Positions 11 to 4,128 of a stretch of 4,189 bases of DNA are shown here, piece after piece. This stretch comes from Enterobacteria phage SP. The stretch is taken from the sequence record JF719740.1. One strand, given 5' to 3'. The notes under the pieces are model-generated. The model was not told where the DNA came from and made no database searches. It saw nothing but the letters and a program-made list of their open reading frames with translations. Position numbers and translations under genes: made by a program. Positions within the stretch are counted from its first letter, which is position 1; each line of letters opens with the position of its first letter.

Positions 11-1363
11 ATGCCAACCCTTCCGAGAGGTCTTCGCTCCGGATCGAATGGCGAAGTCCTTAATGACTTCGAGGCGCTCTGGTTTCCAGAGCGCCATACC
101 GTAGATCTAAGCAATGGGACCTGCAAGCTCACTGGTTATATCACTAACCTGCCTGGCTACAGTAACATATTCCCTAATAGAGGAGTCACTGTTGCTCGTA
201 CGCCGTACAGAAGTACAGTGCCCGTTAACCATCTTGGTTACAGGCCAGTTACGACTGTTGAGTACATTCCCGACGGAACTTACGTGCGCCTCGATGGGCA
301 CGTGAAATTTGAAGGGGGCTTGGTTAATGGGTCAGTTGATCTCACGAATCTCGTGATCTCGTTAGCTGCTCAGGGTGGCTTCGATTACCAATCGGTAATC
401 GGACCTAGGTTCTCTGCGCGCTTCTCCGCGTTTAGCACCAAATATGGTGTCTTACTCGGAGAAGGGAGAGAGACTCTTAAGTATCTTCTCCTGCTGCTTC
501 GCAGAATGCGTGAAGGGTACCGCGCCGTAAGGCGTGGCGATCTCAAGCGTCTCAGGAATGTGATATGGACGTTCGAGCCGAGTACCGTAAAAGGTAAACG
601 AGCAAGGGCCGAGTTTTCACAGACCTATCGCGACAAGCTTACCGGAAACAAGGTCGAGGTTAGACCGAGTGAAGGTAAGTGGAATAGCAGTAGTGTGAGT
701 GACCTGTGGTTAGAGTTCCGTTATGGGCTGATGCCGTTATTCTACGACATACAGTCCGTTATGGAAGACTTCATGCGTGTTCATAAGAAGATCGCAAAAA
801 TTCAGCGGTTTTCAGCTGGACACGGTAAGCTCGAGACGGTTAGTTCGCGGTTTTACCCGGACGTCCATTTCGGCCTTGAGGTCACTGCAGTGTTACAGCG
901 GCGTCATCGTTGGGGTGTCATATACCAGGATACTGGTTCTTTTGCCACTTTCGACAATGGTCGTCTAGTCCCGGTGAAGGACTGGAAGACAGCGGCGTTT
1001 GCACTCCTTAATCCCGCCGAAGTTGCGTGGGAAGTTACCCCCTACAGCTTCGTGGTGGATTGGTTTGTAAATGTTGGTGATATGCTTGAGCAGATGGGCC
1101 AGCTTTATCGGCACGTCGATGTCGTTGACGGTTTCGACCGGAAAGACATAAAACTCAAATCCGTATCAGTACGCGTGCTAACGAACGACGTTGCGCATGT
1201 TGCTAGCTTTCAGCTGCGACAAGCAAGACTGTTGCATAGTTATTACTCGCGCGTGCATACCGTTGCGTTTCCGCAAATTTCACCACAGCTCGATACTGAG
1301 ATCCGTAGCGTTAAGCACGTAATCGATAGTATCGCCCTATTAACCCAACGCGTTAAGCGTTGA
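11..1363 (+). CDS. A2: Maturation (A2) protein; in Qbeta-like phages also the lysis effector that inhibits MurA
   Basis: 450-aa ORF, ATG at 11 and TGA at 1361..1363. First gene in the levivirus order. The N-terminus MPTLPRGLR..., internal motifs (LWLEFRYGLMPLFYDI, EVAWE.TPYSFVVDWF.NVGD, GQLY...D.VDGFDR.DI.LKS) and the C-terminal LLTQRVKR match my recollection of the Qbeta A2 protein. Confidence 0.92.
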   Translation: MPTLPRGLRSGSNGEVLNDFEALWFPERHTVDLSNGTCKLTGYITNLPGYSNIFPNRGVTVARTPYRSTVPVNHLGYRPVTTVEYIPDGTYVRLDGHVKFEGGLVNGSVDLTNLVISLAAQGGFDYQSVIGPRFSARFSAFSTKYGVLLGEGRETLKYLLLLLRRMREGYRAVRRGDLKRLRNVIWTFEPSTVKGKRARAEFSQTYRDKLTGNKVEVRPSEGKWNSSSVSDLWLEFRYGLMPLFYDIQSVMEDFMRVHKKIAKIQRFSAGHGKLETVSSRFYPDVHFGLEVTAVLQRRHRWGVIYQDTGSFATFDNGRLVPVKDWKTAAFALLNPAEVAWEVTPYSFVVDWFVNVGDMLEQMGQLYRHVDVVDGFDRKDIKLKSVSVRVLTNDVAHVASFQLRQARLLHSYYSRVHTVAFPQISPQLDTEIRSVKHVIDSIALLTQRVKR

Positions 1364-1382: not shown

Positions 1383-1781
1383 ATGGCAAAATTAAATCAG
1401 GTAACTCTTTCCGAAATCGGAAAGAATGGGGATCAGACTTTAACTCTTACACCGCGCGGGGTAAACCCGACGAACGGCGTGGCGTCGCTATCTGAAGCTG
1501 GAGCTGTTCCGGCATTAGAGAAGCGCGTAACTGTGTCAGTTGCGCAGCCATCTCGGAACCGTAAGAACTTTAAAGTTCAGATTAAACTCCAAAACCCGAC
1601 TGCATGCACGAAGGACGCATGTGACCCATCTGTGACGCGATCTGCTTTCGCAGACGTAACGCTGTCGTTCACGTCGTATTCTACCGACGAGGAACGTGCG
1701 CTGATTCGCACTGAATTGGCAGCTCTACTGGCGGATCCACTGATTGTCGATGCTATTGACAATCTGAACCCAGCCTACTGA
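1383..1781 (+). CDS. cp: Major coat (capsid) protein
   Basis: ATG at 1383 gives MAKLNQVTLSEIGKNGDQTL...NLNPAY (132 aa plus stop), ending at TGA 1779..1781. It is near-identical in pattern to the allolevivirus coat protein (PRGVNPTNGVASLS.AGAVPALEKRVTVSV.QPSRNRKN.KVQ, STDEERA..RTELAALLA.PL..DAID.LNPAY). The ORF track starts at an in-frame TTG at 1377, but the conserved N-terminus points to ATG 1383 as the real start. Confidence 0.95.
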   Translation: MAKLNQVTLSEIGKNGDQTLTLTPRGVNPTNGVASLSEAGAVPALEKRVTVSVAQPSRNRKNFKVQIKLQNPTACTKDACDPSVTRSAFADVTLSFTSYSTDEERALIRTELAALLADPLIVDAIDNLNPAY

Positions 1782-2378
1782 GCGGCGTTACTGGTAGCCT
1801 CGTCCGGCGGTGGGGATAATCCCTCCGATCCAGACGTCCCGGTTGTCCCAGACGTCAAACCGCCAGACGGTACGGGGCGCTATAAGTGCCCCTTCGCCTG
1901 TTACCGCCTCGGTAGTATTTACGAGGTCGGTAAGGACGGTTCTCCTGACATTTATGAAAGGGGAGACGAAGTCTCAGTCACTTTCGATTACGCTCTCGAG
2001 GATTTCCTTGGGAACACGAATTGGCGTAACTGGGATCAGCGATTATCAGATTATGATATAGCTAATCGTCGTCGTTGCCGTGGCAATGGGTACATCGACC
2101 TAGATGCAACCGCTATGCAGTCTGATGATTTCGTATTGTCAGGCCGCTACGCGGTGCGAAAGGTCAAGTTTCCCGGCGCCTTCGGCTCAATCAAGTATCT
2201 CTTGAACATTCAAGGTGATGCCTGGTTAGACTTATCCGAGGTAACAGCGTACCGTTCCTACGGAATGGTTATTGGTTTCTGGGCAGACTCTAAGAGCCCG
2301 CAGCTACCAACCGATTACACGCAGTTTAACAGTGCGAATTGCCCTGTGCAGACGGTGATAATCATACCCTCACTTTAA
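1383..2378 (+). CDS. A1: A1 read-through protein (coat fused to a C-terminal extension; minor capsid protein)
   Basis: In-frame continuation beyond the coat UGA. The extension begins AALVASSGGGDNPSDPDVPVVPDVKPPDGTGRYKCPF... and carries the conserved block LGNT.WR.WD.RLS......CRGNGYIDLDAT, then KPGAFG.I, then VIGFW, ending ...CPVQTVIIIPSL. This matches the Qbeta A1 read-through domain as I recall it. The ORF-track entry 2115..2378 is the Met-initiated tail of this same frame. Confidence 0.85.
1779..1781 (+). other. Leaky UGA stop codon of the coat gene (programmed read-through site)
   Basis: TGA at 1779..1781 is followed by G (UGA-G). The same frame stays open with no stop from 1782 to TAA at 2376..2378; I translated it codon by codon. 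Confidence 0.8.
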
Positions 2379-2387
2379 GCAACTTAA

Positions 2388-2392
2388 AGGAG
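2388..2392 (+). promoter_or_regulatory. Shine-Dalgarno sequence of the replicase gene
   Basis: AGGAG at 2388..2392 with a 5-nt spacer before ATG 2398. Confidence 0.6.
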
Positions 2393-2393
2393 A

Positions 2394-2413
2394 TAGCATG
2401 CCAAAGACAGCTA
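2394..2413 (+). promoter_or_regulatory. Translational operator hairpin (coat-protein binding site) enclosing the replicase start codon
   Basis: UAGC-A-UGCC AAA GACAGCUA. Pairs are 2394-2413, 2395-2412, 2396-2411, 2397-2410, 2399-2409, 2400-2408 and 2402-2406, with A2398 (the A of the AUG) bulged, one C-A mismatch (2401/2407) and a 3-nt loop AAA. The architecture is the same as the Qbeta operator (8-bp-type stem, bulged A, 3-nt loop) as I recall it. Confidence 0.6.
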
Positions 2414-4128
2414 GTCGCAGAAGAGAAATTACTCAACTATTGGGTAAGGTCGACATCAACTTCGAAGACGACATCCATATGTCTATTGCTAATGACCTCT
2501 TTGAGGCCTACGGCATCCCTAAACTTGATTCGGCGGAGGAGTGCATTAACACCGCATTCCCGAGCCTCGATCAAGGCGTTGACACGTTTCGTGTCGAATA
2601 CTTACGCGCCGAAATCTTATCAAAGTTTGATGGGCACCCTCTCGGTATTGATACCGAAGCGGCTGCATGGGAAAAGTTCCTAGCGGCCGAGGAGGGTTGT
2701 AGACAAACGAACGAACGACTATCGCTAGTTAAGTACCACGATAATTCCATTTTGTCGTGGGGCGAGCGTGTTATTCACACGGCCCGTCGAAAAATACTTA
2801 AACTAATCGGCGAGTCTGTACCGTTCGGGGATGTGGCGTTGCGCTGCCGTTTTTCTGGCGGCGCGACGACCTCGGTTAACCGTTTACACGGTCATCCGTC
2901 GTGGAAGCATGCCTGTCCGCAGGATGTTACCAAACGCGCATTCAAGTACCTGCAAGCCTTTAAGCGGGCCTGTGGTGACGTTGTAGATCTACGCGTCAAC
3001 GAGGTGCGCACTTCAAATAAAGCAGTCACTGTTCCAAAGAACAGTAAAACTGATCGCTGTATTGCTATCGAGCCCGGCTGGAATATGTTTTTCCAGTTAG
3101 GCGTCGGTGCAGTGCTACGCGATAGGTTGCGTTTATGGAAGATTGATCTTAATGACCAATCGACCAATCAACGCCTCGCGCGTGATGGGTCTCTGCTAAA
3201 TCATTTAGCTACCATAGACTTATCTGCAGCCAGCGATTCAATCAGCCTTAAGCTTGTTGAGTTGCTCATGCCCCCTGAATGGTATGACCTTCTAACGGAT
3301 CTCCGATCCGATGAAGGAATACTGCCTGACGGGCGAGTTGTGACCTATGAGAAAATATCCTCCATGGGTAATGGCTACACTTTCGAACTCGAGTCGCTTA
3401 TTTTTGCGGCTATCGCTCGAAGTGTGTGCGAGTTACTGGAAATTGACCAATCTACTGTTAGCGTGTACGGGGATGATATAATCATCGATACCCGTGCCGC
3501 AGCTCCATTAATGGATGTCTTTGAGTACGTCGGGTTCACTCCTAACAGAAAGAAAACGTTCTGCGATGGACCCTTCCGCGAATCGTGCGGTAAGCACTGG
3601 TTCCAAGGGGTAGATGTAACGCCCTTTTACATACGACGACCAATACGTTGCCTAGCCGATATGATACTTGTATTAAATAGTATCTATAGGTGGGGCACTG
3701 TTGATGGCGTATGGGATCCTAGAGCACTGACCGTTTACGAAAAGTATCTTAAACTGCTGCCAAGAAATTGGCGTCGCAATCGGATACCAGACGGCTACGG
3801 AGACGGAGCTCTCGTCGGATTGGCTACGACGAACCCGTTTGTAATAGTTAAGAATTATTCAAGACTATACCCGGTATTAGTTGAAGTCCAGAGGGACGTC
3901 AAGCGCAGCGAGGAGGGTAGTTATTTATATGCCCTCCTACGTGATCGCGAGACACGTTACAGTCCTTTCCTGCGTGACGCAGATAGGACTGGTTTTGATG
4001 AAACGCCGCTAGCTACTAGCCTTCGTCGCAAGACAGGTCGGTACAAAGTGGCGTGGATTCAGGACAGTGCCTTCATCCGGCCCCCGTATTTTATTACGGG
4101 AATTCCCGAGGTGAAGCTCGCAAGCTAG
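2398..4128 (+). CDS. rep: RNA-dependent RNA polymerase (replicase beta subunit)
   Basis: 576-aa ORF, ATG 2398 to TAG 4126..4128. The YGDD catalytic motif (VSVYGDDIIID) is encoded at 3466..3477. Conserved blocks match the Qbeta replicase from memory: CRFSGGATT, HPS.K, NKAVTVPKNSKTDRCIAIEPGWNMFFQLG, NHLATIDLSAASDSISL, VTYEKISSMGNGYTFELESLIFA, FRESCGKH, VDVTPFYIR, YRW...DGVWDPRA. Confidence 0.95.
   Translation: MPKTASRRREITQLLGKVDINFEDDIHMSIANDLFEAYGIPKLDSAEECINTAFPSLDQGVDTFRVEYLRAEILSKFDGHPLGIDTEAAAWEKFLAAEEGCRQTNERLSLVKYHDNSILSWGERVIHTARRKILKLIGESVPFGDVALRCRFSGGATTSVNRLHGHPSWKHACPQDVTKRAFKYLQAFKRACGDVVDLRVNEVRTSNKAVTVPKNSKTDRCIAIEPGWNMFFQLGVGAVLRDRLRLWKIDLNDQSTNQRLARDGSLLNHLATIDLSAASDSISLKLVELLMPPEWYDLLTDLRSDEGILPDGRVVTYEKISSMGNGYTFELESLIFAAIARSVCELLEIDQSTVSVYGDDIIIDTRAAAPLMDVFEYVGFTPNRKKTFCDGPFRESCGKHWFQGVDVTPFYIRRPIRCLADMILVLNSIYRWGTVDGVWDPRALTVYEKYLKLLPRNWRRNRIPDGYGDGALVGLATTNPFVIVKNYSRLYPVLVEVQRDVKRSEEGSYLYALLRDRETRYSPFLRDADRTGFDETPLATSLRRKTGRYKVAWIQDSAFIRPPYFITGIPEVKLAS

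Follow-up and report, generated by a model that had tools for sequence, protein, structure and literature searches.

A group IV-specific insertion in A2, the presumed lysis protein of phage SP, and its predicted position on the Qβ A2 fold

Small single-stranded RNA phages can lyse their host with one gene product. L of MS2 and other membrane single-gene lysis proteins answer this need, and for the Qubevirus genus the accepted, textbook view is that it is answered by A2, the maturation protein. The protein considered here is related to Qβ A2 (PDB 5MNT and 5VLZ; 5VM7 for the complex with MurA), which is likewise encoded by the first cistron of a genome that lacks a separate lysis gene. It is 420 aa long (CDS 61..1323 in AB971354; PDB chains of 420/421 aa) and forms a molecule of ~110 Å, in which a four-helix end bearing two patches of positive charge lies opposite an end built of β-strands. 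In the virion, the capsid encloses the α-region, which is connected to the genomic RNA and touches an internal coat dimer with its C-terminal part. The β-region faces outward and makes most of the MurA contacts through residues 30 to 120 (as cited in PMC12856241); the pilus site is thought to lie nearby. The shortest lytic fragment of Qβ A2 comprises residues 1 to 180; free A2 also loses its lytic activity through mutations in the C-terminal α-region, so in the cytosolic form the helical end has some bearing on lysis. Demonstrations of lysis and of MurA inhibition exist for Qβ only.

The A2 gene of phage SP, the 450-aa length of its product, and the missing lysis cistron have been on record since 1988 (Inokuchi et al. 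1988; X07489/NC_004301, protein CAA30372). Here we describe where the additional residues of SP A2 lie, what they may do, and how the case for lysis by this protein compares with that for Qβ.

Genome layout and the A2 protein of SP

When compared with deposited phage genomes by megablast, the stretch of DNA analyzed here (4,189 nt in full; referred to below as the window) gave a full-length match to Enterobacteria phage SP (Qubevirus faecium, group IV). Over its whole length, it shares 99.8% of its nucleotides with the laboratory strain GQ153935 ("SP_ancestral") and 98.9% with the 1988 reference (X07489/NC_004301). It corresponds to nt 45–4233 of 4276, so that the first 44 nt and the last 43 nt are missing. 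The 7 nt differences between SP_ancestral and the window amount to A2 S186W, coat K11E, replicase A536T, and four synonymous changes, of which two fall in A2; with so few differences, the window represents an SP clone of laboratory lineage. The 1988 record holds the same 450-aa gene at coordinates offset by 44 nt, and the two A2 proteins are about 97% identical, with point differences only. The window also has the gene order of a Qubevirus: A2 is the first cistron, the coat gene with its leaky UGA and A1 extension follows, and the replicase gene comes last; a separate lysis cistron is absent (Table 1).

Table 1. Features of the window, numbered from its first nucleotide
Feature	Position	Strand	Remarks
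A2 (maturation/lysis protein) gene	11..1363	+	ATG ORF, 450 codons + stop; annotated in X07489 as "maturation protein (AA 1-450)"
Most divergent A2 segment, residues 30-118	98..364	+	Counterpart of Qβ 30-120; 27% identity SP/Qβ
Conserved strip, residues 63-87, RTPxRxTVPxxxxGxRPxTxVxYxP	197..271	+	Within the divergent β-region
Group IV-specific 31-codon insertion in A2, residues 190-220	578..670	+	PSTVKGKRARAEFSQTYRDKLTGNKVEVRPS; gap opposite Qβ H191/N192
Nine codons, residues 211-219, TGNKVEVRP	641..667	+	From alignments; SP/BR1/BR8/P0001 clade only
Second small length difference in A2, residues 403-405	1217..1225	+	Three extra codons relative to Qβ
Coat gene	1383-1781	+	Leaky UGA at 1779-1781; Levi_coat E 3e-58
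A1 read-through extension of coat	to 2378 (coat + A1 = 1383..2378)	+	Read-through domain E 1.5e-48
Alternative-frame ORFs, coat start to early replicase	1810..2061, 2104..2205, 2272..2358, 2339..2683	+	Highest 19-residue Kyte-Doolittle score 1.29
Replicase β-subunit gene	2398..4128	+	RNA_replicase_B E 6e-258

The product of the first cistron is a member of the maturation-protein family (Pfam PF03863, Phage_mat-A, E 5e-86). A phmmer search matched it to the Qβ A2 chains 5vlz and 5mnt with an E value of 1e-116 in two blocks, residues 1-188 and 221-450. Overall, the SP and Qβ proteins are 49% identical, and both finish in a C-terminal helix with a conserved TQRxKR end. Relatives of SP A2 were confined to 13 clusters in the database search, and an AlphaFold2 model calculated from a 13-sequence alignment was of moderate quality (mean pLDDT of 69, pTM of 0.57). 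The best Foldseek matches of this model were nonetheless the Qβ A2 crystal chains 5mnt (E 1e-38, TM 0.62-0.73), and the assignment of SP A2 to the Qβ A2 fold is sound. The predicted structure has the same two parts, namely, a β-region with strands at residues 8-118, 266-307, and 369-416 and a four-helix α-region (α1, 127-187; α2, 229-263; α3, 345-366; α4, 434-449). The first cistron of the window is SP A2, a protein of the Qβ A2 fold encoded in a genome of Qubevirus layout.

The insertion in group IV A2 proteins

A preliminary description of this DNA had noted that the ORF at 11..1363 encodes 450 aa, compared with about 420 aa in Qβ, and both lengths proved correct. It had also placed the extra sequence in the poorly aligning N-terminal part of the protein, and here the alignments gave a different answer. 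In a MAFFT alignment of eleven phage A2 proteins, the insertion forms a single discrete block of 31 residues between well-aligned flanks, and phmmer paired SP 1–188 with Qβ 1–190 and SP 221–450 with Qβ 192–420. The worst-aligning segment, residues 30-118, is not longer in SP than in Qβ. The comparison with Qβ, SP, and FI A2 that had been proposed as a check thus located the extra residues at 190-220 and 403-405. Since four Qβ residues fall in small N-terminal gaps of the SP protein, the difference in length is 31 + 3 − 4 = 30 residues.

The insertion is present at the same site in the other group IV A-proteins (NL95, FI, HB-P22, HB-P24, BR1, and BR8), which are 74-96% identical to SP A2, and they have in common the core motif R-x-x-F-[SN]-x-[TSA]-Y-[RC]-D. 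It is 31 aa long in SP, BR1, BR8, and one metagenomic relative and 22 aa long in NL95, FI, HB-P22, and HB-P24; these last four differ from SP in lacking the nine residues TGNKVEVRP, which is why their A2 proteins are 438-442 aa long rather than 450. The insertion is absent from the A2 proteins of Qβ, M11, FrBurgundy, P0008, P0011, and P0012, and three short-form lineages (group III, P0008, and P0011/P0012) have an identical junction, YH-[NK]G-W. The most economical reading of this distribution is that the insertion was gained in the group IV ancestor at an indel-tolerant loop. A search for an origin by duplication returned only short matches at chance level.

At the same site, the distant protein P0013 (35% identity) carries an unrelated ~24-aa insertion.

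In the AlphaFold2 model, the insertion consists of a short loop and an extra helix at residues 193-212 (pLDDT of 78, falling to 57), followed by a low-confidence coil that runs to residue 228; pLDDT values in the second half of the insertion are 36-57. Its position can be described from topology. Because α1 leaves a β-strand and α2 re-enters one, the connection between them is at the closed end of a helical hairpin, furthest from the β-region, and the insertion is predicted to sit in this α1-α2 connection at the distal tip of the helical bundle. The insertion is also basic, with 8 K/R and 3 D/E residues and a net charge of +5. If SP A2 is arranged in the virion as Qβ A2 is, the insertion most likely extends the helical tip inside the particle, on the side of the genomic RNA or of the internal coat dimer.

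The preliminary description had suggested that the extra residues could alter pilus or receptor interaction or MurA binding. The model argues against this suggestion, since the β-region, to which MurA and the pilus bind, occupies the end of the molecule opposite the predicted α1-α2 position, and since residues 190-220 fall outside the counterpart of the Qβ minimal lytic fragment, 1-180. A direct part of the insertion in binding either partner is therefore unlikely as judged from the predicted fold. The length difference between Qβ and SP A2 can now be pinned to essentially one insertion, and the topology points to contacts with RNA or internal coat, rather than to a role at the MurA or pilus surface.

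We also considered whether the insertion is maintained as a peptide or as RNA. Within group IV, its dN/dS ratio is 0.12-0.52 (Nei–Gojobori); the insertion is under purifying selection and is constrained as a peptide. It is at the same time the fastest-changing stretch of A2, with a dN of 0.14 between SP and BR1 versus about 0.02–0.03 elsewhere in the protein and a dS of 1.15 for the same pair versus 0.09-0.48 in other regions. An extra genomic stem-loop, kept for folding of the RNA or for coat binding and not for the peptide, would fit a group of phages whose genomes are densely structured and have many stem-loops that touch coat dimers, and nt 560-690 do form a more stable fold than their shuffled counterparts (z = -2.5). 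However, a z value of this size is unremarkable in genomes of this kind, and an Rfam search returned zero matches. The constraint seen at the protein level also speaks against this explanation, as does the unusually high dS, since a conserved RNA element would be expected to keep synonymous divergence low. Given that synonymous divergence is locally high, a conserved RNA element is disfavored, and we regard an RNA-level function in place of a peptide one as highly improbable.

The search for separate or cryptic lysis genes

The + strand ORFs of at least 25 codons were all surveyed by their best 19-residue Kyte-Doolittle score (KD19), for which ~1.6 was taken as the transmembrane threshold. For eight candidate ORFs, openness was followed through the aligned genomes of eight phages of group IV and three of group III, and none of the eight is conserved; five of them were also compared with Pfam and PHROGs (E ≤ 1). 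Between the coat gene and early replicase, alternative-frame ORFs of this size contained no segment of transmembrane grade (Table 1), in agreement with the earlier statement that no gene of the MS2 L type lies between or overlaps coat and replicase. Elsewhere, KD19 scores of about 1.7 were reached in ORFs 114-305, 777-968, and 3881-4012, each of which is interrupted by stops in at least two of the eight group IV genomes. The ORFs at 1810..2061 and 2339..2683 are likewise closed in at least one of these genomes; the second is interrupted in four of the eight, and its start codon is missing at the aligned position in three. The sole match among the five ORFs scanned against Pfam and PHROGs was that of ORF 1810–2061 to a family of unknown function, with an E value of 0.31. 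A conserved alternative lysis ORF is absent from the SP genome.

In Qβ, a cryptic lysis gene (Nishihara 2004) is reported to have a lytic 67-aa product made up of 24 replicase codons and 43 codons of the +1 frame, joined at a GAGGUUG shift/restart site. The 24 + 43 codons could be confirmed in the Qβ sequence at GAGGTTG, nt 2421. The positional counterpart in SP is ORF 2339-2683, which lies in the +1 frame over the replicase start and stays open for 95 codons beyond the replicase AUG. However, GAGGUUG is absent throughout the window, the SP and Qβ +1 products are unrelated in sequence, and the +1 frame meets a stop at about codon 15 in NL95, HB-P24, and HB-P22. The other candidate, ORF 777-968, is a 63-codon GTG ORF with the L-like layout of a basic N terminus and a hydrophobic C terminus (KD19 = 1.69). 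It is open in SP, BR1, BR8, and HB-P22, but it has stops in NL95, HB-P24, and FI. Upstream of both candidate starts, a good Shine-Dalgarno motif was not apparent by eye, the candidates are without a Pfam or PHROG family match, and open frames of this size are expected by chance in a 4.2-kb genome. It is thus very unlikely that a cryptic alternative-frame product from either ORF causes or aids SP lysis.

Proposed lysis by A2 and the MurA-contact segment

By homology with Qβ A2, we infer that A2 lyses the host of SP and that it acts through MurA. In such a scheme, the single-copy maturation protein would bind the F-pilus with its exposed β-stranded end, while the buried α-helical end would hold the 3' end of the genomic RNA inside the capsid. 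A2, either free or bound to the virion, would bind substrate-liganded MurA via the outer face of the β-region, and the resulting block of MurA would stop the first committed step of peptidoglycan synthesis, with lysis at the next division. The SP data agree with this reading, because the protein is homologous to Qβ A2 from end to end and has the same predicted fold, the genome has the Qubevirus layout, and a conserved lysis ORF is absent; applied to SP, the textbook view of A2-mediated lysis is nevertheless an extrapolation from Qβ. In contrast to MS2 L, the presumed lysis protein of SP is a soluble 450-aa structural protein. We consider it quite probable that ORF 11-1363 is an A2 that lyses the host via MurA in the Qβ manner and that carries its insertion at the RNA-facing interior tip.

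GenBank notes on the A-proteins of NL95, FI, and M11 read "particle maturation and bacterial lysis," albeit as annotation only. Our literature search for a direct lysis test of SP or any other group IV A2 found none, and the genus-wide statements about MurA in the accessible literature cite Qβ experiments only. The claim that all qubeviruses lyse their hosts through MurA therefore appears to be based on Qβ alone, while the surface concerned is the most divergent part of A2: identity between SP and Qβ is 27% over residues 30-118 versus 50-62% elsewhere in the protein. This segment is modeled as all-β, with pLDDT values mostly of 76-91 and a dip to 62 in the block 71-80. Since so little of the contact segment is identical, conservation of the MurA interface cannot be read from sequence.

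SP A2 might accordingly lyse its host without a Qβ-type MurA interface, through another mode of binding MurA or through another cell wall step. The low identity of the counterpart of Qβ 30-120 and the lack of a direct lysis test for group IV in the literature searched would leave room for this, and both shifts and convergence of lysis targets are known among ssRNA phages. Divergence alone says little, however, because the β-region also changes rapidly inside groups, with identities of only 53% between Qβ and M11 and 53% between SP and FI. SP and Qβ also have the same host, the same F-pilus receptor, and the same A2 fold, MurA binding is treated by the field as a property of the genus, and the strip at residues 63-87 survives in the SP β-region. 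We judge a departure from the Qβ-type interface to be quite unlikely.

An allele of MurA, L138Q (rat), was reportedly described by Bernhardt et al. in 2001. Lysis by Qβ is blocked by this allele or by overexpression of murA, and MurA co-purifies with Qβ virions. It is conceivable, if unlikely, that group IV A2 has kept its lysis role with a rebuilt MurA surface that binds differently, escapes alleles of the L138Q type, or has moved to another target; the insertion would then be an interior contact to RNA or the coat dimer that co-evolved with the slightly different SP 3' UTR. Should group IV A2 bind MurA differently, it would represent a second solution to inhibiting this enzyme.

Within the otherwise divergent β-region, the strip at residues 63-87 is strongly conserved. 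Its positions T64, P65, R67, T69, V70, P71, G76, R78, P79, T81, V83, Y85, and P87 are invariant across 11 group III and group IV phages, and most of the strip adopts non-regular structure in the AlphaFold2 model. The strip is a candidate for a shared binding surface or for part of the structural core.

Alternative-frame reading frames

Three plus-strand ORFs that overlap the major genes were considered, together with the coding changes that separate this genome from the SP laboratory strain (table). The ORF inside A2 encodes GVIVGVSYTRILVLLPLSTMVV, which has a basic N terminus, a hydrophobic C terminus, and an "LS" dipeptide, and its best 19-residue Kyte-Doolittle score (KD19) is 1.69 (TM threshold, about 1.6). 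The product loosely resembles L-type lysis proteins, the membrane type of MS2. The frame is intact in SP, BR1, BR8, and HB-P22 and interrupted in NL95, HB-P24, and FI, and no good Shine-Dalgarno motif was seen for it when the sequence was inspected by eye.

The ORF that spans the A1-replicase junction matches in frame and position the reported "cryptic lysis gene" of Qβ, in which 24 replicase codons are joined to 43 +1-frame codons at GAGGUUG (nucleotide 2421 of the Qβ genome, AB971354). Unlike Qβ, however, SP lacks this heptamer, and the SP product is unrelated in sequence to that of Qβ. The frame also meets an early stop in NL95, HB-P24, and HB-P22. The start and stop codons of the ORF within replicase are kept in all eight group IV genomes (SP and its relatives), and the frame is open in six of them, with BR1 and BR8 carrying a premature stop at codon 12; this ORF is probably a side effect of conserved replicase sequence.

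ORFs and non-synonymous changes in the SP genome
Feature	Window position	Strand	Description
GTG ORF, 63 codons	777-968	+	alternative (+2) frame within A2 gene
TTG ORF, 114 codons	2339-2683	+	+1 frame relative to replicase; A1 end to replicase start
TTG ORF, 43 codons	3881-4012	+	+1 frame of replicase; KD19 1.68
A2 S186W	566-568 (codon 186)		versus GQ153935
Coat K11E	1413 (codon 11)		versus GQ153935
Replicase A536T	4003 (codon 536)		versus GQ153935

Divergence around the A2 insertion

Between SP and BR1/BR8, dS was about 1.2 across the group IV-specific insertion (578-670) and about 0.1 in the adjoining segment encoding helix α1 (365-577), a ~10-fold difference based on small numbers. The α1 segment may be constrained at the RNA level, or the contrast may come from a local patch that is hypervariable or has recombined. 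P0008, a metagenomic A2 homologue of 421 aa, stands at roughly the same distance from the Qβ-containing group III (56-57%) as from group IV (53-56%). The insertion is missing from P0008, yet its conserved β-region strip is group IV-like in sequence. This protein may belong to an intermediate Qubevirus lineage that has not yet been described.

Strain differences and annotation of A2

The three non-synonymous changes relative to GQ153935 ("SP_ancestral"), one each in A2, coat, and replicase, suggest that this SP descends from a line used for laboratory evolution or mutation accumulation. S186W lies four residues N-terminal of the insertion. In PHROGs, A2 (11-1360) falls in phrog_4286 (E = 2.5e-141), a family that carries the label "head maturation protease". 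This label looks like a mis-annotation derived from the word "maturation"; to our knowledge, levivirus maturation proteins are not proteases. Both this genome and the laboratory strain carry A2 F10S, whereas every other coliphage A2 protein has Phe at that residue.
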